From sequence record NZ_CP072388.1: 64,000 nucleotides of DNA; one strand, given 5' to 3'. Source of the DNA: a plasmid. Both the position numbers and the translations under genes were made by a program. Positions 1 through 22,136 of this stretch are shown piece by piece (position 1 is the stretch's first letter; every line of letters starts with the position of its first letter). The notes beneath the pieces are model-generated. The model saw only the letters and a program-made list of their open reading frames with translations. It ran no database searches and was not told the origin of the DNA.

Positions 1-8
1 GCAGTGAC

Positions 9-806
9 GTGCAGAAAGACAGTGTGCACATCTCCAACACAAGCGCTCTTCTGTCACAGGGGGGCGACGACCACGGCTGGATCCGAACCTGGCGGGCTGC
101 GGTCTCCACCTACGAGACGGTGCGTCTTCCCGGTAGGCACTGGTACACGGCACGGTTTCTTCTCCGTGCGATCGGAGAGGCTGCACACAAGACCGGCAGC
201 AGGTACGTCGGATTCGGCTGCAGATCGCTCGCTGAAGCCTGCGGAGCCGACTACACGACGGTGTCAGTCTTACTGCACGAACTCCAGCGTGCTGGCTGGA
301 TCGACCTGATCGAGTCCGCGCGCGGCGAGACAGCAGACCTGTACGAGCTCACCCTCCCCCACGATCTCCGCGGCCGGTCGGACGAACTGCGCTGGCAGCG
401 TGGCAAGGTGTACTCGCTTCGGCCGGCCTTCCGCGAGCTCGGCCACGTCAGTGCTTTCGTCTTCGAGGCCGTTGAGCAGGGCAGGGCCTCCTCCATCACG
501 GAACTTGTCGCCATCACCGGGATCTCGCGACGAGCTGTTCACACCAGCATTGACCTGCTCACCGCCTGGGACCTCGTCGAACGCACAGACGAGGGCCTGC
601 GAGCCTTCCCGGAGCGCCTCGGGCGTGTCGCCGAGCACCTCGGCGCCTTCGAGGCGATCTACGAGCAGATGCGCCGTCACCGCGCACAGCGGGCCACCTG
701 GCGGGCCTGGCTCGCGCGGTTCGAGGGCCACTGGGATGAGGGCGAGCACTGGGACGAACTCCACTCCCCCGCGGCCGAGACCCTCTTCGCGACGGAGGTG
801 GCCTGA
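9..806 (+). CDS. Putative plasmid replication initiator or winged-helix DNA-binding protein, possibly 5'-partial at the window edge
   Basis: 265-aa ORF with two winged-helix-like segments (LHELQRAGWIDL, ITELVAITGISRRAVHTSIDLL). It lies immediately upstream of the iteron-like repeats and parA. Assigned from position and composition only. Confidence 0.4.
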   Translation: MQKDSVHISNTSALLSQGGDDHGWIRTWRAAVSTYETVRLPGRHWYTARFLLRAIGEAAHKTGSRYVGFGCRSLAEACGADYTTVSVLLHELQRAGWIDLIESARGETADLYELTLPHDLRGRSDELRWQRGKVYSLRPAFRELGHVSAFVFEAVEQGRASSITELVAITGISRRAVHTSIDLLTAWDLVERTDEGLRAFPERLGRVAEHLGAFEAIYEQMRRHRAQRATWRAWLARFEGHWDEGEHWDELHSPAAETLFATEVA

Positions 807-960
807 GATGAGGGCCGAGGCCCCAGCGATCTTCATTCATGAACACAGACATGAACCACGTCATGAACCGTGTTCGCCAGTCATGACTTCATGCATTCAT
901 GCAAACATGCACAACCAGGCGTCCGCCGGACACCCTGGACGACTTGAGAGAGGTACGCGA
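806..960. repeat. Upstream array of CATGAA/TTCATG hexamers (iteron or centromere-like) between the rep-like ORF and parA
   Basis: At least 6 copies of (T)CATGAA/TTCATG in about 100 bp (ttcattcatgaacacagacatgaaccacgtcatgaacc...tcatgacttcatgcattcatgcaaacatgcac). The array is AT-rich relative to the flanking DNA. Confidence 0.6.
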
Positions 961-1736
961 TGACGACGACGACCGCGCTCGGAAACCAGAAGGGCGGTGT
1001 CGGGAAGACCACGGTGTCGCTGTGTCTGCTGAGCGAGCTCGCTCGTCTCGGCAGGTCATGTCTGCTGATCGACCTCGATCAGCAGATGTCTGCGTCCTCG
1101 ACCGTGGGCGCGGAGGGCGACATCACGATCGAGGACGTCCTGCGCGCGAAGGCTCCCGCGCACCTGTCCGATGCGATCGAGAAGTCGCAGTGGGAGGGGA
1201 TCGACGTCGTTCCGGGCTCCGACACCATCCAGACCCTTGAACGTGACCCCGACGTCATGGCCGCCTTCCGTCTCCAGAAGGTCCTTCGAGACAACGCCGA
1301 CCTGCTCTCCAAGTACGACGACATCATCATCGACCTGCCACCGGATCTGGGGACCTGTACGGTCTCCGGCCTCCTCGCGGCCGACCAGGTCGTCGCCGTG
1401 ACGATCCCGGAGCCGTGGAGTTCCGAAGGCCTCGACCGATTCCTCACTACGCTCGAGGGGATCCGCCAGGGGCCTCACCCCTCGTTGACCCTGTTCGGCG
1501 TCATCGTGAACATGGTCCGCCGCACCAACGAGCACCGGTACCGCATCGCCGAGTTGAACGACTCCGTGGGCGGGCTCGTCATGAACCCGGTGATCCCGCA
1601 GCGCGTCGCCGCGGCGGAGGTCGCAAGCGAGCAGCTGCCGCTGCACGAGCTGAAGAACGAGGGCGCAAAGGTCCTATCAGACCTGTTCGCTGAGCACGCC
1701 AGGGCGCTGGCCGAGGGCCGGAAGGGGAAGAACTGA
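960..1736 (+). CDS. parA: ParA-family partition ATPase (small type Ib, 258 aa)
   Basis: Deviant Walker A motif GNQKGGVGKTTVS near the N-terminus. The size and D-rich motifs are typical of small ParA/ParF proteins. It overlaps the downstream RHH gene by ATGA. Confidence 0.9.
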   Translation: MTTTTALGNQKGGVGKTTVSLCLLSELARLGRSCLLIDLDQQMSASSTVGAEGDITIEDVLRAKAPAHLSDAIEKSQWEGIDVVPGSDTIQTLERDPDVMAAFRLQKVLRDNADLLSKYDDIIIDLPPDLGTCTVSGLLAADQVVAVTIPEPWSSEGLDRFLTTLEGIRQGPHPSLTLFGVIVNMVRRTNEHRYRIAELNDSVGGLVMNPVIPQRVAAAEVASEQLPLHELKNEGAKVLSDLFAEHARALAEGRKGKN

Positions 1737-2347
1737 TGCCGAAGCCGCGAATGTCGAAGAGAACAGCTCTCGACGTCGTCCTCGGTCAGCCGGCGCCTGT
1801 CGCGGCGCCGGAGTCCGGAAACGGGACGAGCACAACCACCGCTGTGGTCGAGCCTGAGCAGAGGGACGAAGGGCCAACGTCTGACGAGGCCGAAGGAACC
1901 GAACCCGAGCCCGCGCCCACAGCGGATGGCGCCCCGTCGGCAGAGAGCACAACGCTCGTTACGCCGGATCAGGACGAGACGGCGGAAGTTGAGGACGGCC
2001 AGCGCGAGACCAGCGAGACGGACGAGGCAGGCGAACCCGCTGAGTCGGCCGAGCCTGAACCGCTGCCCACCCCGGAGCCGGGGCCACGCCAGGCGGCGTC
2101 GAAGGCTCGACCTCGCAGGCATGCTCCGGCTGCCCCCTCTCTCGAGGAGTCTGACCCCCGATTTCAGCCGGTGCTCGGACGCAACGATGATGCTGCGCTC
2201 GTGCCGTTCTCGACCCGCCTTACCCCAGATCTACGTCGCCGGCTCAAGCTCTACTCCGCGGTGTCGGGCGAGTCCACGACCAGCCTGACCAACCGCGCGC
2301 TCGACTACATGCTCGAGGTGGCCGAACGCAAGGTCGGCATGCGCTGA
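1736..2347 (+). CDS. ParG-like centromere-binding protein (acidic disordered N-terminus with C-terminal ribbon-helix-helix)
   Basis: Translationally coupled to parA. The C-terminus (RRRLKLYSAVSGESTTSLTNRALDYMLE) has an RHH-like pattern. There is no ParB N-terminal nuclease domain. Confidence 0.65.
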   Translation: MPKPRMSKRTALDVVLGQPAPVAAPESGNGTSTTTAVVEPEQRDEGPTSDEAEGTEPEPAPTADGAPSAESTTLVTPDQDETAEVEDGQRETSETDEAGEPAESAEPEPLPTPEPGPRQAASKARPRRHAPAAPSLEESDPRFQPVLGRNDDAALVPFSTRLTPDLRRRLKLYSAVSGESTTSLTNRALDYMLEVAERKVGMR

Positions 2348-2399
2348 GTCATCCCGTCCATGTCTGAGGGCCCTGCGTCGATCGCGCGGGGCCCTCAGC

Positions 2400-2830
2400 C
2401 TTTGCGCAGGCGTGTGTGAAGTCATGAATGCATGAAGTCATGAGTACCGCGGTCCCAGCCGCGCCCAGCACCGTTCATGAAAGCATGCATGAATGCATAA
2501 ACTCGCGAGCCCATCGTTGGGCCGGCGTACATCCACCACCCGGACAGTTCATGCATGCCTTCATGAAAGCAGGAACGAATGAATGCATGATCCCGTGACC
2601 ACTTTGCGTGCGTCGGTGAAAGTATGAAGTAGTTCACGCATTCATGTACCACTTCATGCATGACTGCATGTGTTGATGAAGCAAGTCATGAAGCCATTCA
2701 TGTTTACATGCATTCATGCATGACGTCATGAACGCATGAATGCATGAACGGTTCTCCTGCGAGCTGTTGGTTCGGGCGACCATGCATGAATGCATGAATG
2801 CATGCATGCGTTCATGCAGTTCACACTGCC
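2400..2830. repeat. Large AT-rich array of CATGAA/TTCATG/ATGCATGA motifs downstream of the par operon (second centromere or iteron/oriV candidate)
   Basis: More than 25 hexamer copies in both orientations, including tandem tgcatgaatgcatgaatgcatgcatg. No coding capacity. The motif is the same as in the 806-960 array. Confidence 0.65.
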
Positions 2831-2948
2831 TCGCCTGCCTTGTCCTCGTTGGCGCAGTCGCGGGACAACCGAGATTAGAAGCTCCACGTGAGTGGGGCAC
2901 AGCTCGTATGTGCGCACCTAGGCTGACATCGATAGAGCGGGAGGTGCG

Positions 2949-3479
2949 ATGGTCGAGCGTGGATCCTGCCGCACGTGCGGCGTGGAAACTGTCCGCCTGA
3001 GGTGCTTCGACGGCACTGTGCGGACATTCCACGCGCGAGAAGCCGCCAATCCCGATCTCGACGAGTCTCAGCGCTGGTACTACACGGCCACGCGCGGAGC
3101 GATCAGCGGCGCCGACGCGTCCTCGCCACCCAACAGGCCGTACCTAACCCTTCACCAGTGCCTGCGCACACGCGCCGGCTTCGGCGAGTCCACCAGAAAC
3201 GAGGCCGGCACGATCCGTGCCGCCGACGCAGTCGCGCTCCGTACGGATGTCCCCACGGTCAACGACTCGGCGCTGAGCCTCACCGGCTACCGCTGGACGT
3301 ACCGATGGCCGTCCCACTGGGCGCACATCATCGCAGGCCGAGCACCCCAGGCGCTGTGCGGCGCCACCGTCCTGGTGCCCGAGGAGATGAGCGAGAGGGA
3401 ACGCGCGCGGATCTCGACGATGCACGTGTGCCCACGGTGCGTGCAGACGAACGCCCGCCACGAACGAACACGTCGCTAG
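2949..3479 (+). CDS. Hypothetical Cys-containing protein (possible zinc ribbon: CRTC...CPRC)
   Basis: The ORF has a good RBS (GGAGGTG) before the ATG. Four Cys residues are arranged as CxxC...CxxC. Confidence 0.45.
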   Translation: MVERGSCRTCGVETVRLRCFDGTVRTFHAREAANPDLDESQRWYYTATRGAISGADASSPPNRPYLTLHQCLRTRAGFGESTRNEAGTIRAADAVALRTDVPTVNDSALSLTGYRWTYRWPSHWAHIIAGRAPQALCGATVLVPEEMSERERARISTMHVCPRCVQTNARHERTRR

Positions 3480-3540
3480 GGGAGCACGCGCATCGACGCC
3501 GTGTGCGAAGATCTACAACGAATGCAAAGACTGCAAAGGA

Positions 3541-4680
3541 GTGCGAACGGTGGCGCGTAACCCGTTCAAGCCCACAGCGGGCGCCACACCGCCCCTGCTC
3601 GTCGGGCGTGATGACGACCTCGAGGAGTTCGCTGAATCCCTGGACGACGGACCAGGCGCGCCCGGACGACTGACGATCTTCACCGGCGCCCGCGGCGTCG
3701 GCAAGACCGTGATGCTCACCGAGGTCGCCGACACCGCGCTCCAGCGAGCCTGGGTGACGATCGCCGAGACCGCCACGCCCGGCCTCATCGACCGCCTCTC
3801 GGCAGCCACCTCGATGCTCTCGCGCGAGCACGATCCGACCAGCCACCGCGGCCGCAGCATCACCGGTGTCACCCTGCCGGTCGTAGGTGGAGGCCTCACC
3901 TTCAGCCAGGCACCTGCCGTCGTCACGGCGTGGCGCGACGAGCTCGGGGGAGTGCTCGACGCACTCGAGAACCACGGCACCGGACTGCTCGTCACGATCG
4001 ACGAGGTCCACCACGTCGCACGCGAAGACCTTCGCGCACTCGCCGCAACGTTCCAGCACCTGGTACGCGAAGACCGCAACGTCGCCCTCGCCTTCGCCGG
4101 TCTCCCGTCGTCGGTCTCCGACCTGCTCAACGACGACGTCCTGACCTTCCTGCGCCGCGCCACACCCGTCCACCTGGAAGACGTCGCCCTCGACGACGTC
4201 AAGACCGCCCTGCGCACCACCATCACCGACAGCGGACGCACCATCACCGACACCGCCCTCGACGCCGCCGCACAAGCCACCGGCGGCTACCCCTTCATGA
4301 TCCAGCTCGTCGGCTACCACGTATGGCGCAAAGCCAGCAGCGACACCATCGACGAAGCCGCCGTCGCACTCGGCATCCCAGCCGCCCGCAAGCGACTCGG
4401 CTCCACCGTCCACGCCACGGCCCTCGCCGACCTGTCCGACGTCGACCGCACCTATCTGCTCGCCATGGCACAAGACGACGGCCCCTCCCGCACCGGAGTC
4501 ATCGCGAAGCGACTACGCGTCAGCGACTCCTACGCCCAGGTCTACCGCGGCAGACTCCTCGACGCCGGCATGATCGAGACAACCAGACGCGGCTACGTCG
4601 ACTTCGCCATCCCCTACCTGCGCGAATACCTCCGCGAGCACGCCGCCCAGTACGAGATGGCAAACCGCCCCGAGAACTGA
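3541..4680 (+). CDS. AAA-family ATP-binding protein with C-terminal HTH-like region
   Basis: Walker A motif GARGVGKT, Walker B-like LLVTIDEVHH, and a C-terminal helix-rich region. An alternative GTG start at 3550 has an AAAGGAG RBS. Confidence 0.65.
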   Translation: MRTVARNPFKPTAGATPPLLVGRDDDLEEFAESLDDGPGAPGRLTIFTGARGVGKTVMLTEVADTALQRAWVTIAETATPGLIDRLSAATSMLSREHDPTSHRGRSITGVTLPVVGGGLTFSQAPAVVTAWRDELGGVLDALENHGTGLLVTIDEVHHVAREDLRALAATFQHLVREDRNVALAFAGLPSSVSDLLNDDVLTFLRRATPVHLEDVALDDVKTALRTTITDSGRTITDTALDAAAQATGGYPFMIQLVGYHVWRKASSDTIDEAAVALGIPAARKRLGSTVHATALADLSDVDRTYLLAMAQDDGPSRTGVIAKRLRVSDSYAQVYRGRLLDAGMIETTRRGYVDFAIPYLREYLREHAAQYEMANRPEN

Positions 4681-4748
4681 CCTGTACCCCGCCAGCGCGC
4701 CCTGTCGCCGCGCAGCGCGCGCTGCGGGCCACCACCCAAGGAGCAGAC

Positions 4749-4910
4749 ATGACCCTCGACGTCAACTACCCGCCTACTCACCACCCAGCCGTAGCCGTCC
4801 CTGAGCGCCAAGACGTCGAGCAGTCCCTGCTCGCCCACCTCCCTCAGCCCACAACGCCAGCCATCGGAGACCTGACCTGGCCAGGCCTCGAGGCACCCGA
4901 GAGCCTCTAG
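4749..4910 (+). CDS. Small hypothetical protein (53 aa)
   Basis: A strong RBS (AAGGAG) lies 5 nt before the ATG. There is no similarity-based call. Confidence 0.35.
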   Translation: MTLDVNYPPTHHPAVAVPERQDVEQSLLAHLPQPTTPAIGDLTWPGLEAPESL

Positions 4911-5079
4911 CCGAACGACTGATCGACGCCCTCGCGCTCACCCGAGCACGAGGGCATCGTCGTTCCCGGACGCGGCCGATGGCCGAATGGGGGAGCGCTG
5001 AGGTGAGGTAGTGCCCGTCTTCGACCTCGGCTGGGCGCACGGAGATCGAAAGCGTCCTAGCTCGCAAGGAAGCGCACGG

Positions 5080-5322
5080 TTACCCGCGGTGCTTCTCAAC
5101 GTTGCGATACAGGTCGAGCAGTTCCTGCACGTCGCGTTCCTCCGCGCGCCGACGAACGTCCGGACCAGACACCCGGAACGCACACCAAGCGATCACGGCG
5201 ACGTAGACGAACAAGCCCGCCACGAGCACGAGCCACTCACCGCTGTCACCGACGACCTCGTCCATGCGCTCGACCGTACCGCCCCCCTCACCCAGCTCAC
5301 CGACGACCCAGGGAAGAGACAA
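5080..5322 (-). CDS. Small membrane protein (80 aa, one TM helix)
   Basis: Hydrophobic stretch LVLVAGLFVYVAVIAWCAF. Low complexity otherwise. Confidence 0.3.
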   Translation of the reverse strand: MSLPWVVGELGEGGGTVERMDEVVGDSGEWLVLVAGLFVYVAVIAWCAFRVSGPDVRRRAEERDVQELLDLYRNVEKHRG

Positions 5323-5341
5323 GTCGGCGGCCGAGACTCGT

Positions 5342-5692
5342 GGTGGAGCTCGGCAGGGTGCGTGGTGCGCCGGCCGGTGGCCGGCCCGATCTGTGGCCGC
5401 TGCGCGGCCCGGTGCTTTCCCGCGCTGCGCGCGGGGAAGTCGTCCCCTCCTGGCTCTCCATCATCGCCCGCGCGACCCTGCGCGCAACCCGCTCGACTAC
5501 GTCGCCGGCCCGTCGCCGAAACTCGTCGCCCGGCGCTCCTTCGTCGCTTCATCCGGGCGACGAGCCCCGTCGTCGGACCGTACCGCGGGTTGCACTCCGG
5601 GCCGCTTATGCGGGCGTTGATTACGGAGCCAGGAGGGGGCGAAAAACGGTCGGGACCACCCGCCACCCGCCACCTGGCAGGAAGGAGCCCCC
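5342..5692 (+). promoter_or_regulatory. Copy A of a roughly 330-bp palindromic leader element upstream of the DUF4192 gene
   Basis: Shares long blocks with 6957-7308, 11040-11351 and (diverged) 16940-17267: tggccgctgcgcggcc, cccgcgctgcgcgcgggg, gtcgtcccctcctggctctccatcatcg, gcgcgaccctgcgcgcaacc, tgattacggagccaggagggggcgaaaaacggtcgggaccacc. It ends with ggaagg followed by the start codon. Confidence 0.7.
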
Positions 5693-6727
5693 GTGGCTCA
5701 CCAGCCCGCACTCCGCGCCCGCACCGTCGCCGACGTGCTCGCCTACATCCCCGCGTGCATCGGGTACACCCCGACCGAGAGCATGGTCGTCGTCGCCCGC
5801 CGGTCGAGCACCGGCACCGTCGGCCTGGTCGCTCGCGCGGACCTGTCCGACGTCACGCCCGAGACGGCCGACATGCTCGCCGTGCACGTCGCCAACGACC
5901 GCGCCGCGTCCGCGATCATCGCCCTGTACACCGAGGACCGCGAGCAGGCCGACCGCACCCTCGCGGGCATGACCGAGGCCCTGCACGGCCAGGCCGTCGA
6001 CGTGTACGACGCCGTGCAGGTCAGCGCCGACGGGTACGTCGACCTCCACGCGCCGCACCCGGTCGTGCGCCCGCTGTCGGACGTGACCTCGAGCGTGCTC
6101 GCCGCCGAACTGGTCGCCTCCGGCGTCGCCCCGGCGCGTGACCGCGCCGGGCTGCTGCCCGGCGCGGCCGACGAGGCCGCCCAGGACCTCGCCCGCAGTG
6201 CGGCCGCCAAGCACGCCGCCAAGACGCGCGACGAGCAGACCACCCACGCGCTCGCCACGTGGCGACTCGCGCTCAGCGGCCTGGTCGACGGCCCCGCGAT
6301 CTACGGCGAACTCGCGCAGATGCTCACGCACATCAAGGTCCGTGACGCCGCCCTGCTGACCGCCGTCCCCGACGTCGACCCGGACACCGTGACCCAGGTT
6401 GTCACCGGGCAGAACCCGGACGACGACGCCGTGGGCCGCGCGATCGCCGCGATGGTGGACCCGAAGGTCGGCGTCCAGCCCGGTGAGGCCGCCGACGCCG
6501 CGCGCGATCTGCTCGCGCAGATCATCGCGCACGTGCCCACCAGCGCCGCCGCGTGGACGCTGTGGGGCTTCCTCACGTGGTGGACCGGGCAGAACGGCAT
6601 CGCGGGCGACGCCATCGACCGCGCGCTCAGCGTCGACGACGGCTATCGCCTGGCCCTGATGCTGCGGGCCGTGCTTCGGGCGGGCCTGCCGCCCGCATGG
6701 GTCGTGCGCGAGCGCGACGCGCAGTGA
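5693..6727 (+). CDS. DUF4192-family protein
   Basis: The N-terminus (LRARTVADVLAYIPACIGYTPTESMVVVA) matches the DUF4192 signature common on actinobacterial plasmids and conjugative elements. GTG start with a GGAAGGAG RBS. Confidence 0.7.
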   Translation: MAHQPALRARTVADVLAYIPACIGYTPTESMVVVARRSSTGTVGLVARADLSDVTPETADMLAVHVANDRAASAIIALYTEDREQADRTLAGMTEALHGQAVDVYDAVQVSADGYVDLHAPHPVVRPLSDVTSSVLAAELVASGVAPARDRAGLLPGAADEAAQDLARSAAAKHAAKTRDEQTTHALATWRLALSGLVDGPAIYGELAQMLTHIKVRDAALLTAVPDVDPDTVTQVVTGQNPDDDAVGRAIAAMVDPKVGVQPGEAADAARDLLAQIIAHVPTSAAAWTLWGFLTWWTGQNGIAGDAIDRALSVDDGYRLALMLRAVLRAGLPPAWVVRERDAQ

Positions 6728-6860: not shown

Positions 6861-6956
6861 ACGCGCGTCCCAGCAGACCGCACCGAACCAGCCACCAGCG
6901 CCAGGCCGGGGAGCGGCCCGTGGCCGATGGGGGAGTGCCGGTAGCGGGTGCGCCTG

Positions 6957-7307
6957 GTGGAGCTCGGCCAGGTGCGTGGTGCGCCGGCCGGTGGCCGCCC
7001 CGATTCGGTGGCCGCTGCGCGGCCTGGTGTTCTCCCGCGCTGCGCGCGGGGGAGTCGTCCCCTCCTGGCTCTCCATCATCGACCGCGCGACCCTGCGCGC
7101 AACCGACCTCGCTGCGCGTCCCGGCCCGGCGAAACTCGGCGGCCTGCGGTCGCTGCGCTCCCTGAGCTCGGCCGGCGAGCCCCGCCGTTCCGGGACCGGT
7201 CGGTTGCGCTCTGGGCCGCTTGTGCGGTCGGTGATTACGGAGCCAGGAGGGGGCGAAAAAACGGTCGGGACCACCGGCCACCCACCTGCTGGCGGGAAGG
7301 GGCACCC
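6957..7307 (+). promoter_or_regulatory. Copy B of the roughly 330-bp palindromic leader element upstream of the parB-like gene
   Basis: Near-identical to copy C and about 85% identical to copy A. Ends ...accaccggccacccacctgctggcgggaaggggcaccc followed by ATG. Confidence 0.7.
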
Positions 7308-8714
7308 ATGACCACCGACACCACGGCCACTCAGGCCGAGACGACCACCACCGCCGACGGCGCGGAGTTCGCCCACGTCGACCCGCGCACCCTGGTTGTC
7401 GGCGTGAACGTGCGCGCCGACGCCGACCTCACGCCCGCGTTCGTCGGCTCGATCAAGCAGCACGGAGTCCTGCAGCCCGTGCGCGTGCGCCGCGACGACG
7501 ACGGCACGCTCGTCGTCCTGCACGGCCAGCGCCGCACCCTGGGCGCGATCGAGGCGGGCCAGGCGACGATCCCCGCGTACATCGTGACCAGCAGCGGCGA
7601 GGGCGCGCAGCGCATCGTGGAGCAGTTGGCCGAGAACGACCATCGCGAGGACATGCGCGACAGCCACCGCACCGCCGCCTACCGTCAGCTCTCGCTCGAG
7701 TTTGGGCTGAGCGCGGCGCAGATCGCCAAGCGCACCGGCACGAAGAAGGCCGTCGTCCAGGCCACGCTCACCGTGGCCGAGTCCCAGGTCGCCGCCGCCG
7801 TGCAGGCCAAGTACGACCTGCCGCTGGATGTGGCCGCCGCCCTGGCGGAGTTCGACGACGACACTGAGACCGTCAAGAACCTGACCGCCGTCGCGGTCAA
7901 GGAGCCTGGCCGCTTCGCCCACGAGGCTCAGCGCGCGCGTGACGAGCGCCAGCGCGCCGCCGAGGTCGCCGCCGCCCGCGAGACCCTGACCGCACAGAAC
8001 GTGACCGAGGTCGAGCGCCCCGACTACAACGACGCCAAGGTCCAGCACCTGGCTCGACTCAAGCCCACCAACGACGACCCGAACGGCACCGACCTGACCC
8101 CCGAGGCGCACGCCGAGTGCCCCGGTCACGCGGCGTACATCGCCGCGCAGTGGAACCGCGTCGAGATCGTCTACGTCTGCACGAACTGGCGCACCCACGG
8201 CCACGCCGACCGCTACGGCACCACCAGCACCCAGCGCACCGGACCGATGAGCGAGGCCGAGAAGGCCGAGCGCAAGCAGGTCATCGAGAACAACAAGGCG
8301 TGGAAGTCCGCCGAGACCGTGCGCCGGACCTGGCTCGCGGAGTTCGCCCAGCGCAAGACCGCCCCCAAGGGCGCCGCCGAGTACATCGCCCACGCGATCG
8401 CCACCGAAACCCACACCCTGCGACGCGCAGGAGAGCGCGGACACACACTGGCCAGCGAATGGCTCGGCATCAAGACCGAGACCAGCCCGTACCCGACCGG
8501 ACGCGGCCTGGCCGACCTCATCGCCAAGGCCACCCCCAGCCGCGCCCAGCACATCGCGCTCGTCCTCGCCCTCGCCGCACGCGAGGCCGAGACCGGCGTG
8601 CAGACCTGGCGCCGCGAAGGCGCCGAACAGACCTACCTCAGCGCACTCGAAACCTGGGGCTACACCCTCAGCGACGTCGAGCAGATCGCCCGAGGCCAGG
8701 CGCCCACCGAGTAG
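7308..8714 (+). CDS. ParB/Sulfiredoxin-like nuclease-domain protein (469 aa)
   Basis: The N-terminal block (GVLQPVRVRRDDDGTLVVLHGQRRTLGAIEAG) resembles the ParB N-terminal domain with its GxRR motif. The long C-terminal region is unique. Confidence 0.75.
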   Translation: MTTDTTATQAETTTTADGAEFAHVDPRTLVVGVNVRADADLTPAFVGSIKQHGVLQPVRVRRDDDGTLVVLHGQRRTLGAIEAGQATIPAYIVTSSGEGAQRIVEQLAENDHREDMRDSHRTAAYRQLSLEFGLSAAQIAKRTGTKKAVVQATLTVAESQVAAAVQAKYDLPLDVAAALAEFDDDTETVKNLTAVAVKEPGRFAHEAQRARDERQRAAEVAAARETLTAQNVTEVERPDYNDAKVQHLARLKPTNDDPNGTDLTPEAHAECPGHAAYIAAQWNRVEIVYVCTNWRTHGHADRYGTTSTQRTGPMSEAEKAERKQVIENNKAWKSAETVRRTWLAEFAQRKTAPKGAAEYIAHAIATETHTLRRAGERGHTLASEWLGIKTETSPYPTGRGLADLIAKATPSRAQHIALVLALAAREAETGVQTWRREGAEQTYLSALETWGYTLSDVEQIARGQAPTE

Positions 8715-17267: not shown

Positions 17268-17519
17268 ATGACCAGCCAGGGGATCGAGGTCACCGTGTAC
17301 AGCAAGCCGGCGTGCGTGCAGTGCGACGCGACGTACCGCGCTCTGGACAAGAAGGGGATCGCGTACACCGTGGTGGACATCAGCGCCGACGCCCTCGCGC
17401 TCGAGCGGGTGCGTGCCCTGGGGCACCTCCAGGCCCCGGTCGTCGTCGCCGGTGACGTGTCGTGGTCCGGGTTTCGGCCCGACCAGGTCAATGCCCTCGC
17501 GGCCCGTCAGGAGGTCTGA
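17268..17519 (+). CDS. nrdH: NrdH-like glutaredoxin-fold redoxin
   Basis: 84 aa with a CVQC redox motif near the N-terminus (VTVYSKPACVQCDATY), the typical NrdH/glutaredoxin pattern. Confidence 0.7.
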   Translation: MTSQGIEVTVYSKPACVQCDATYRALDKKGIAYTVVDISADALALERVRALGHLQAPVVVAGDVSWSGFRPDQVNALAARQEV

Positions 17520-20196: not shown

Positions 20197-20595
20197 GTGA
20201 CCGAGCAGACGACGCGAGCACGCAGCCAGAAGCGGCAGCGGCGCGCGAACGTGCCCGGGGGACGACGCCACTACCACCGCGTCGGAGTGACGCCCGAGGA
20301 AGAGGCGATGCTGTTGCAGCGGGCCGCGGCCGCGAAGGTCACCGTGCCGCGCTTGCTCGTCGAGTCTGCGCTTGCGGAGCATGGTGAGACCGCGACCGAT
20401 CGCGCTGAGTTGCTGACGGAGCTGTTCCACGCGCGGAGGCTGCTCGCTGCCGTGTCGAACAATCTCAACCAGGTAGCGCGTGCGACGAATGCGACGGGCG
20501 AGATCCAGGCCGAGCTGACGGACACCCTGCGCAACGTGACGATCACCAGCGAGCGGGTCGGGCGGGCGCTTCGACGGTTCGAGGTCGGCGCATGA
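20197..20595 (+). CDS. mobC: MobC-family relaxosome accessory protein
   Basis: LNQVARATNATGE motif typical of MobC. ATGA overlap with the relaxase gene. GTG start with an AGGAG RBS. Confidence 0.7.
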   Translation: MTEQTTRARSQKRQRRANVPGGRRHYHRVGVTPEEEAMLLQRAAAAKVTVPRLLVESALAEHGETATDRAELLTELFHARRLLAAVSNNLNQVARATNATGEIQAELTDTLRNVTITSERVGRALRRFEVGA

Positions 20596-22136
20596 TGCCG
20601 AACATCACGCGCGGCGACAGGGTCGCCGGCGTGATGGTGTACCTCGCGGGGGAGGGGCGGCACAACGAGCACACGAACCCGCACGTCGTTGCCGGGCACG
20701 ACGTCATCGTGGACGTGGTCGGCGGGCGCGAGCTGAGCACCGACGACGCTCTCGACATCGCCAACGAGCTCGATCTGCCGCGGCGCGTGTTCGGCACGCG
20801 CGTGACCGTCCCGGTCAAGGAGTGGAGCGAGGAGCAGCAGCGCCAGGTCAAGGTCGGTGACCGGGACGCGCACGTTTGGCACTGCTCGCTGTCGCTGCGC
20901 GCCGCGGAGGGCACGCTGTCGGACGAGCAGTGGAACCGGATCGCGACCGACTTCGTAGAGGGCATGGGCTTCGGGGCCGCCAGTGACGACGGCGCCGGGT
21001 GCCGGTGGGTCGCGGTCCGGCACGGGCTGTCGTCGGCCGGCAACGACCACGTGCACATCGTGGTGAACCTCGTGCGCGAGGACGGCACGAAGGCGTCGGT
21101 GCACAACGACCAGCCGCGCGCGCAGCGCCTGACGAACGAGCTCGAGCACCGGCACGGGCTGCAGGTGCTCGAGTCGCGCGAGGTCGGACGCGGGGCACTT
21201 GCCGGCGCGAAGCCTGCCGAGCTCGGGCGCGCCGAGCGTGAGGGTGCCGCGCTCCCGGCGCGCGACGAGCTGCGCCGGCGCGTGCGCGCCGCGGCCGCGG
21301 AGGCGACGAGCGAGCGCGAGTTCCTGGACGCGCTGCGCGACGTGCGGGTGCTGGTCCGACCCCGGTACGCCGAGGGCGGGCGCGAGCGCGTCGTCGGGTA
21401 CTCGGTCGCCCTCCCGCCGTCGGTCGATGACGGGCGGCGCGCGGCACCGGTGTGGCACGGCGCGGGCCGCCTCGACAACTCCCTGGCGCTCGGCCAGCTG
21501 CGCGCCCGCTGGGGCGCCGACGTCGCCGGCGACCCGGCCCTGACGCCGGCATGGACCCAGCGGTGGACCACCCTTGACGTCGCGGACAAGGTGCGTGCGA
21601 GCGAGCCACCGCGCGACGCCGCACGCGCCCTGGTCGGGCTGTCCGGGACGCTCGGAGACGGCGGACAGCGCCTCGCGGCCGCCGACGCCGCGGGCGTGTT
21701 CGCGCGCGCATCGATCGCGCTCGAGAAGGACAAGCCAGGTCCGCTCGCCAAGCTCTCCGACGACCTCGCCCGCGCGGCCCAGCCCTCGGCCTACACCGCA
21801 GAGGACCGTGACCGGCAACGGCGCGAGAACGCCGCGCTTGGGGCCGCGTACGTCAGTCGGCTCATGGCCCGCGGCACGGGCAGCGACTCACGCACCGGAT
21901 GGATCGCCGTCATGCGGCAAGCCGAGCGCACCGCCCGCGCGATCGCGCACGCCCAGGCACTGCAGGGACGGGCGGTCGCGGCGGCGCAGACGAACCGTGC
22001 GCTCCTCGCCGCGGTCGCAGCGGTGCCGCAGATGGAAGGCCGCGCCGCGGCGCCGAACCTCGATCCGGGCGCCCACGCGATGCGCGACCGCCGAGGGGCT
22101 GCCGTGCGCGACGTCGACGTGGAACAAGGCCGCTGA
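20592..22136 (+). CDS. Relaxase/mobilisation nuclease (MobA/VirD2-like)
   Basis: Histidine triad NDHVHIVVNLV and relaxase motif I-like sequences in the N-terminus. 514 aa. Confidence 0.85.
   Translation: MMPNITRGDRVAGVMVYLAGEGRHNEHTNPHVVAGHDVIVDVVGGRELSTDDALDIANELDLPRRVFGTRVTVPVKEWSEEQQRQVKVGDRDAHVWHCSLSLRAAEGTLSDEQWNRIATDFVEGMGFGAASDDGAGCRWVAVRHGLSSAGNDHVHIVVNLVREDGTKASVHNDQPRAQRLTNELEHRHGLQVLESREVGRGALAGAKPAELGRAEREGAALPARDELRRRVRAAAAEATSEREFLDALRDVRVLVRPRYAEGGRERVVGYSVALPPSVDDGRRAAPVWHGAGRLDNSLALGQLRARWGADVAGDPALTPAWTQRWTTLDVADKVRASEPPRDAARALVGLSGTLGDGGQRLAAADAAGVFARASIALEKDKPGPLAKLSDDLARAAQPSAYTAEDRDRQRRENAALGAAYVSRLMARGTGSDSRTGWIAVMRQAERTARAIAHAQALQGRAVAAAQTNRALLAAVAAVPQMEGRAAAPNLDPGAHAMRDRRGAAVRDVDVEQGR

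Follow-up and report, generated by a model that had tools for sequence, protein, structure and literature searches.

What are two unequal arrays of the same short repeat doing on either side of a plasmid partition operon, and which of them would act as its centromere? The question is raised by the left end of a 64,000-nt stretch of plasmid DNA from sequence record NZ_CP072388.1 (hereafter the window), in which parA (960-1736, + strand) and a gene for a putative centromere-binding protein of 203 aa (1736-2347, + strand) are flanked by boxes with a CATG core, 7 of them upstream of parA (836-911) and 28 downstream of the operon (2421-2818). We consider it likely that the locus is a type Ib partition cassette whose partner protein, ending in a predicted ribbon-helix-helix (RHH) domain, coats both arrays, the upstream one serving as operator and the downstream one as main centromere. 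The genes, their domain layout, the statistics and lattice of the boxes, and the recurrence of the layout in relatives are direct observations, from which the argument below starts.

A probable type Ib partition operon

At the left end of the window, a Rep-like gene (3-806) is followed by a 153-bp intergenic region (807-959), parA, the partner gene, a hairpin and an AT-richer non-coding stretch (~2421-2818); the next gene in the list of open reading frames (ORFs) starts at 2949 on the + strand. For comparison, we used five close relatives of the locus (L001, L003, L006, L007 and L017), which come from Cellulosimicrobium assemblies and one metagenome bin.

The product of parA is a Walker-type partition ATPase of 258 aa, a size within the range of type Ib ParA proteins (~190-310 aa; PMC3235114). 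It carries a deviant Walker A motif, KGGVGKT, at residues 11-17, matches the Pfam models AAA_31 (2.8e-32) and CbiA (3.1e-21), and scores 72.9 bits against NCBIfam ParA_partition, under the cutoff of that model. Domain searches returned no match to an N-terminal HTH domain. ParA is 95% identical to its L001 counterpart and 35-42% identical to the listed plasmid ParAs of PLSDB, those from Arthrobacter, Herbiconiux, Hoyosella and Prescottella being the nearest. A Shine-Dalgarno-like sequence, GAGAGAGG (946-953, + strand), lies 6 nt before the parA ATG and is invariant in five loci, and the start of the partner gene overlaps the parA stop by one base (TGATG at 1734-1738), an arrangement common to all relatives. 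The type Ib assignment made in the initial annotation thus holds, with a small Walker ParA without N-terminal HTH and a translationally coupled RHH-like partner.

The partner protein

The partner is built of three parts. A basic N-terminal peptide, MPKPRMSKRTALDVVLGQPA (1736-1795, + strand), is conserved with the consensus MPKPRM(S/Q)KRTALDVVLGQPAP, M6 and K8-G17 being invariant in 16 sequences, and is modelled with a predicted local distance difference test score (pLDDT) of ~70 and a short helix at residues 11-15. By analogy with the tails of ParG and omega, this peptide may be the tail that contacts ParA and stimulates its ATPase (PMC3074162, PMC3130281). It is followed by an acidic linker of ~118 aa, predicted to be disordered (1796-2149, + strand; pLDDT <50), which is rich in Pro, Ala and Thr and has a net charge of -22. 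Across homologues, whose total length is 191-211 aa, the linker keeps its length (107-127 aa), its net charge (-11 to -22) and its Glu/Pro/Ala/Thr-rich composition, while its sequence is unconserved. Type Ib partners measure 46-131 aa (PMC3235114), and the 203 aa found here fall outside that range because of this linker; small partner size describes the type Ib class, not its mechanism.

The third part, a predicted C-terminal RHH domain (2150-2344, + strand), consists of the strand LVPFSTRL and helices at residues 164-177 and 181-200, and is near-invariant in the homologue alignment A1, where it reads DPRF.PVLG..DDAALVPFSTRL.PDLRRRLKLYSAVSGESTTSLTNRALDYMLEV. Several weak, concordant signals point to the RHH fold. 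The domain matches Pfam RHH_10 with an E-value of 0.008, under threshold, and a family profile combining it with nine domains from more distant ParA partners finds ParG (1p94) as its best PDB match, at an E-value of 0.0048, followed by CopG-family, omega and PutA RHH proteins. In the AlphaFold2 (AF2) monomer model, two helices with pLDDT ~90 follow an extended segment, and a Foldseek search with the full-length partner model gave weak matches (E-value 2.5 or worse) that include RHH domains. A PDB search with the single sequence of the domain gave no match.

The protein family is small. Homologues amount to 16 cluster representatives in 5.8 billion proteins, those named belonging to Cellulosimicrobium or Isoptericola, and an exhaustive search with the C-terminal domain alone yielded five representatives in 1.84 billion proteins. 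A hypothetical protein from Cellulosimicrobium cellulans, encoded on a 146-kb contig, matches the window partner at 99% identity. A search with alignment A1 found one locus in the genome collection, on the same contig as L003, and none in the metagenome collection. In PLSDB, neither the partner (tblastn) nor positions 1-5000 of the window (megablast) found a match; no Pfam model covers the family, and there is no Pfam ParG match.

Some public protein models bear on this family. P0002 (167 aa, 99% identical over 82% of the partner) starts internally, with the first 36 codons missing, and lacks the N-terminal peptide that homologues keep invariant; its start codon is probably misannotated, too late. 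P0042 (252 aa) and P0043 (224 aa) are distant RHH-domain relatives with two tandem RHH-like domains after an acidic, Pro-rich region, and the N-terminal peptide of P0043, RIRRSALQIAMG, resembles that of the window partner.

Two arrays of one palindrome-like box

The initial annotation had placed arrays of CATGAA/TTCATG hexamers at 806-960 and 2400-2830, bracketing the operon. These coordinates are correct, with 6 and 19 exact hexamers, respectively, and 12 in the remaining ~63.4 kb. Its figure of more than 25 downstream repeats stands when every CATG-core box is counted (28) and fails for exact hexamers (19). An alignment of every oriented site in the window and in four related loci showed that the repeat unit exceeds the hexamer, being a palindrome-like 8-mer, TKCATGMA, with CATG at its centre. 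Perfect matches to TKCATGMA number 15 in the window, three in the upstream array, 12 in the downstream array and none elsewhere, compared with an expectation of 1.29 (standard deviation 1.16, maximum 5) from 100 dinucleotide-preserving shuffles. The CATG density is 46-69 per kb within the arrays versus 3.2 per kb elsewhere, and nowhere in the 64 kb outside the two arrays do four or more CATG occur within 60 bp.

Box geometry is equally regular. Gaps between successive boxes within a cluster are nearly always 4, 8 or 12 bp, mostly 8 or 12, and 244 of the 249 box pairs no more than 24 bp apart, counted over six loci and in both orientations, are separated by multiples of 4 bp. A repeat search reduced the downstream array to an 8-bp unit and found no longer phased repeat. 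The tandem octamers noticed earlier in this array are present, for example the 8-bp units TGCATGAA TGCATGAA TGCATGCA at 2783-2806.

The upstream boxes form two clusters and end 49 bp before the parA start. Cluster 1 (836-867) holds three direct CATGAA boxes with 12-bp spacing, the first a full palindrome, TTCATGAA; boxes 1 and 2 are invariant in five loci, and box 3 is missing in L007. Cluster 2 (880-911) holds four CATG boxes with 8-bp spacing, GTCATGAC TTCATGCA TTCATGCA AACATGCA, and is partly conserved, one box reading CATA in three of five loci and the last box being present in the window alone. Cluster 2 is probably an operator overlapping the parA promoter.

The 28 boxes of the downstream array, 12 of them perfect TKCATGMA, fall into seven clusters (2421-2444, 2474-2493, 2548-2567, 2584-2591, 2641-2672, 2685-2748 and 2779-2818) with GC-richer spacers between them. 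The earlier claim that no DNA in the window is richer in AT than this array was confirmed: the lowest GC fraction of any 300-bp segment is 0.477, at 2526, versus 0.695 overall, and the 13 segments of lowest GC in the 64 kb all lie within 2351-2975. The dip to 0.48 arises from the boxes themselves. We infer that the downstream array would be the main centromere. ORFs of 56-132 aa rich in MHE/CMH that run through the array were rejected as genes and judged artefacts of the ATG/CAT boxes; no alignment of the arrays was possible among relatives with 83-95% identity in the flanking proteins.

Between operon and array stands a GC-rich hairpin with a 15-bp stem (2364-2398, + strand; fold -35.1 kcal/mol, z = -3.8). 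In all four relatives tested, an equally strong hairpin, each of different sequence, occupies the same place, and the element is probably a transcription terminator that separates the operon from the array. It has no T-tract, and a terminator scan of 700-3000 was negative; a scan of the same interval for sigma-70 consensus promoters found none, with nothing in or after the downstream array. Both scans are uninformative, as such consensus sequences are poorly suited to high-GC actinobacteria. Rfam gave no match in the whole window at gathering thresholds, and in 2300-5800 the matches were no better than chance.

Recurrence of the layout in close relatives

The close loci share one gene order, consisting of a ~460-aa gene, a 155-206-aa gene, a 624-aa Rep-like gene, a 153-bp intergenic region, parA (258 aa), the partner gene, the hairpin and the array. 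All five carry 4-6 CATG boxes upstream of the operon and 19-29 downstream, the latter in ~450-500 bp. Outside the arrays, the ~7-8 kb retrieved around each operon contain at most one perfect box. The suggested layout with two arrays is upheld: the same TKCATGMA box stands on both sides of the operon, as in pB171 par2, and does so again in five related loci. The partners of these loci are ~50% identical overall, with an invariant RHH domain and linkers down to ~50% identity.

Over the upstream intergenic region, these loci are 91% identical; three boxes there are invariant and others are degraded in some loci. We down-weighted this conservation as a footprint of selection because the loci are too closely related. 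The downstream arrays are more informative: they are unalignable position by position among otherwise similar backbones, while box type is kept and numbers stay similar. On sequence comparison, these arrays turn over and their box content stays maintained.

Boxes and RHH strands in more distant relatives

A wider comparison covered ParA relatives at 45-62% identity together with their partners. Where the RHH strand carries Gln at its second position, the boxes have a CTAG core. L011 (strand VQLANRI) has four GCTAGC-type boxes upstream, 16 and 12 bp apart, L012 (VQFANRI) has TCTAGA inside two 17-bp upstream repeats, and L013 (VQLNVRV) has 80 CTAG boxes with strict 9-bp spacing, in clusters of up to five, over 1.6 kb upstream of parA. 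In L015, the strand VQFGTRI occurs with TTCTAGAA-type boxes upstream. CATG or ATGAA-type boxes, by contrast, accompany the strands VPFSTRL, IPFATRL and VPFSTRI: L014 (IPFATRL) has two AACATGTT upstream, and in L010, the Hoyosella plasmid pAS9A-1 (VPFSTRI), TGAATGAAT/ATTCA-type elements flank the operon upstream and downstream. The Herbiconiux and Arthrobacter plasmid loci L008 and L009 combine the strand EPFSSKI with 8-bp GACGTA-type units upstream. It is suggestive that the box core tracks the RHH beta-strand, with Pro at the second position accompanying CATG and Gln accompanying CTAG.

Boxes adjoin ParA/RHH pairs with or without a Rep-like neighbour. L014 and L015, both phage-like contigs, are without one, the upstream neighbour in L014 being unrelated to the Rep-like protein and L015 having no neighbour of comparable size. 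L011 and L012 leave no room for a downstream array, so that the large downstream array characterises the Cellulosimicrobium group but does not extend to the family at large.

The L013 array lies at 2383-3937 of metagenome contig ERZ27247441 k141_371182, between a small HTH_36 gene and the parA/RHH pair; its size would be exceptional among centromere-like arrays of RHH-type systems.

The Rep-like gene at the left edge

The ORF at 3-806 (+ strand) encodes the C-terminal 267 aa, truncated by the window edge, of a protein with two winged-helix domains (Pfam matches MarR_2, HVO_A0114 and HTH_IclR). It is 83% identical to residues 358-624 of the 624-aa L001 protein, and its earlier description as a Rep-like protein encoded at the left edge is sound, the ORF being the last 267 aa of such a 624-aa protein. 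Full-length relatives measure 606-643 aa; the L001 protein has a weak N-terminal LigD_Prim-Pol match (E-value 1.7e-4), and the full-length relatives carry the motif DLD.K...PTGG.HIY within this primase-polymerase match. The label is reasonable given the weak primase-polymerase match and the two winged-helix domains of full-length relatives. The gene is context for the partition cassette and no part of it.

Longer repeats occur upstream of the small-ORF/Rep-like module in two of the distant loci, with three copies of an 18-nt repeat at 39-bp spacing in L011 (1248-1343) and inverted repeats of 18-24 nt in L012 (892-1052). They are candidate iterons, or a candidate origin, for the Rep-like family. 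No comparable long repeats were found in the 1.3 kb available in L001.

Proposed mechanism and the evidence against it

We propose that ParA acts as a nucleoid-bound ATPase and that the partner dimerises through its C-terminal RHH domain, each dimer binding one CATG-centred 8-bp box. On boxes 8 or 12 bp apart, neighbouring dimers would touch, bind cooperatively and coat a cluster; where the distance is 4 bp, as in CATGCATG, the boxes would serve as alternative registers that could not be filled together. The seven upstream boxes would then form the operator for autorepression of parA-parB, and possibly an auxiliary centromere, and the 28 boxes beyond the hairpin would assemble the main partition complex. 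Displayed on their flexible acidic linkers, the basic N-terminal peptides would stimulate ParA-ATP and so position the plasmid. In this scheme, box binding, repression, centromere activity and ParA stimulation are modelled on TP228, pCXC100, pSM19035, pB171 par2 and pMF1.

Several observations weigh against this proposal. The signals behind the RHH assignment each fall under the usual thresholds, and the AF2 monomer model shows no beta-strand. The close loci are closely related (the window and L001 share 95% identity in ParA and 83% in the Rep C-terminus), so that their shared layout is weak evidence of selection, and some of them have degraded upstream boxes. As no promoter was detected, the overlap of the operator with the parA promoter is a conjecture. 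The covariation of strand and box is suggestive rather than statistical, because every system except L013 has two to four boxes, and the Rep-like protein also varies between most of the covarying systems. Finally, a 4-bp lattice could arise from tetranucleotide slippage alone.

This last point leads to a very improbable reading, in which the downstream array is a non-functional by-product of slippage, (ATGC/ATGA)n, seeded from operator-like boxes and drifting in size. The strictness of the lattice, runs such as CATGCATG or the (GCATGCATGAAC)x4 of L003, and the missing positional conservation among close relatives are what slippage would leave behind. However, six loci all hold 19-29 boxes in ~450-500 bp despite turnover, their clusters are parted by unrelated GC-rich spacers instead of forming one expanding tract, and the downstream boxes match the promoter-proximal ones; relatives have comparable clustered arrays with other cores and with a 9-bp period, which is not that of a simple microsatellite. 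An unlikely reading, which we nevertheless take more seriously, treats the downstream array mainly as an operator bank, the RHH protein being a global repressor like omega and any centromere lying in the upstream array. Genes on the + strand do follow the array in every locus (a 53-aa ORF ~60-110 bp on in relatives, the gene at 2949 in the window), RHH centromere-binding proteins also repress, with the sites of pSM19035 omega dispersed over the plasmid (PMC5016525, PMC3235114), and a dual role in silencing and partition would be compatible with this account; silencing of the following genes by the downstream array would equally fit our main proposal. Yet 28 boxes over 400 bp far exceed the need of one promoter, and the promoter scan gave nothing in the array or beyond it; the window and its relatives have different genes past the array, which itself remains linked to the par operon, and in TP228 it is the larger, distal set that is the main centromere and the promoter-proximal set that is the operator (PMC3130281).

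A further alternative, raised for the downstream array in the initial annotation, is that this array, or both arrays, form a replication origin in which the boxes would be iterons for the Rep-like protein and the AT-richer DNA would melt. Its appeal lies in the position of the array, the most AT-rich DNA of the window and <2 kb from the Rep-like gene, in the small array directly between rep and parA, and in the rep-parA-parB synteny shared by every close relative as well as L011 and L012; the region upstream of rep lies outside the window. The boxes themselves argue otherwise, being palindrome-like 8-bp units on a 4-bp lattice, in both orientations and irregular clusters, not direct repeats of 17-22 bp at helical-turn spacing. 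No DnaA-box-like site (TTRTCCACA, at most one mismatch) occurs before position 17342, and only four boxes occur in L011, where the Rep is 49% identical, and two or three in L012, neither locus having a downstream array, while the longer repeats upstream of their rep modules are more iteron-like candidates. CATG or CTAG boxes also adjoin the ParA/RHH pairs of L014 and L015, where there is no Rep-like protein. The GC skew shows no switch near the arrays and is uninformative on the origin. Taken as oriV iterons of the Rep-like protein, the downstream array is hence disfavoured by unit size, lattice, the want of a nearby DnaA box and the Rep-less pairs that carry boxes, and we regard an origin here as improbable.

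Comparison with known partition systems

For an RHH protein coating two arrays, box geometry comes closest to TP228, and the layout has its precedents in pB171 par2 and pMF1. In TP228, ACTC tetramer boxes with 4-bp spacers are each bound by one ParG dimer in either orientation, and both OF (8 boxes, promoter-proximal) and parH (12 boxes, distal) have centromere activity (PMC3130281). In TP228 parFG, a small ParA-type ATPase gene precedes that of an RHH protein whose N-terminal tail is flexible, as predicted for the window partner. Like the window, TP228 has tetramer cores in an 8-bp register, direct and inverted, arranged as a smaller promoter-proximal set and a larger second set. The flexible N-terminal tails of ParG and omega contact and activate their partner ATPases (PMC3074162). 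The two systems differ in that both TP228 sets lie upstream and are near-contiguous, whereas the larger set of the window lies downstream past the hairpin, in seven clusters over 400 bp; in the core, ACTC compared with palindromic CATG; and in the protein, ParG having 76 aa and the window partner 203 aa with a ~118-aa linker.

The pB171 par2 system resembles the window in its order, parC1-parA-parB-parC2, with arrays of ParB sites on both sides of a type Ib operon (PMC4270457). Unlike pB171 par2, the window has very unequal arrays (7 and 28), and host phylum and box sequence differ. According to Ebersbach & Gerdes 2001 and Ringgaard et al. 2007, the pB171 par2 arrays reportedly contain 17 and 18 hexamer repeats. 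The parCAB locus of pMF1 from Myxococcus fulvus likewise has one repeat region, ItA, upstream and another, ItB, downstream of a type Ib operon. Both are bound by ParB in gel shifts, and further sites are dispersed on the plasmid (PMC3235114). pMF1 differs in having a third gene, parC, and its proteins and repeats are unrelated to those of the window.

Another actinobacterial type Ib system, that of pCXC100 from Leifsonia xyli subsp. cynodontis, has a ParB made of a disordered N-terminal region and a C-terminal RHH domain, the architecture predicted for the window partner. The RHH fold of this ParB is not recognisable by sequence, and its 9-bp contiguous repeats are bound cooperatively by successive dimers (PMC3074162); this 9-bp register recurs in L013. 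In contrast to the window, pCXC100 has nine direct, non-palindromic repeats, upstream only, and an N-terminal region of ~64 aa versus ~138 aa. pCXC100 ParB was not listed among the PDB matches of our single-sequence and profile searches. Omega of pSM19035 is similar to what we predict for the partner, an RHH repressor acting on arrays of short units in either orientation, and its arrays of 7-bp units, found at several plasmid locations, double as operators and centromeres (PMC5016525, PMC9499535). Omega differs in its size, 71 aa, in having its sites in the promoters of three operons, and in unit length and sequence. Distinct features of the present system are the absence of a Pfam model and of a PLSDB match, the 203-aa size of the partner with its long acidic linker, the palindromic core, and the unequal, clustered arrays.

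The cassette adds a well-defined, easily testable candidate pair of centromere and centromere-binding protein from poorly studied actinobacterial plasmids, leaving the current picture of type Ib partition unchanged. The change of Pro to Gln in the beta-strand together with the change of the box from CATG to CTAG may be a specificity switch, open to mutagenesis, and the long acidic linker and multi-cluster arrays could reveal how partition complexes of the RHH type become larger. A more far-reaching idea, which we consider unlikely, is that the downstream clusters and the linker build a large multivalent partition complex, an RHH counterpart of spreading or condensing ParB-parS complexes, which might silence adjacent genes and couple partition to neighbouring functions. 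If so, L013, with 80 boxes over 1.6 kb, would represent this design at its most extreme.

Neighbourhood and other features

The window as a whole (64 kb, 69.5% GC) has the gene content of a plasmid or mobile element, including a MobA/VirD2-type relaxase (20409-22136), heavy-metal-type P-type ATPases, a Mu-like transposase and an integrase. The cassette, a probable plasmid-segregation system, comes from a Cellulosimicrobium plasmid.

Immediately to the right of the downstream array, two + strand genes occupy 2949-4680 and are absent from this place in the relatives. They encode a Cys-rich protein of 176 aa with a weak zf-HC3 match and a 379-aa AAA_16 ATPase with weak C-terminal winged-helix/ArsR-like matches, and look like an insertion beside the array. 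Beyond them lies a conserved ORF of 53 aa (4749-4910, + strand; MT[LI]D...GDL[TI]WP) with a good Shine-Dalgarno sequence and no Pfam match, which in relatives starts ~60-110 bp past the last box cluster (at 5195 in L001, 5152 in L003, 5139 in L007 and 4401 in L017).

Further on, a conserved GC-rich non-coding element is found at 5390-5670 of the window (+ strand) and at 5440-5800, 5390-5750 and ~5250-5640 of L001, L007 and L006, respectively. It folds into one long imperfect hairpin of ~300 nt (DNA fold -123.9 kcal/mol, z = -5.8), has no Rfam match, and always stands just upstream of the next + gene, which encodes a DUF4192 protein in the window, a ParB_N-like protein of 470 aa in L001 and L007, and a glutaredoxin in L006. 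This element may be a single-strand element, such as a leading-region single-stranded DNA promoter or an initiation site, or an RNA leader. Also a few kb downstream of the type Ib cassette is a second, unrelated ParB-like gene (ParB_N and HTH_ParB; 470-589 aa), located at 6945-8714 (+ strand) in the window, 5802-7214 in L001 and 5750-7165 in L007, with no partner ATPase seen beside it; its product may be a KorB-like or nuclease-like accessory protein.

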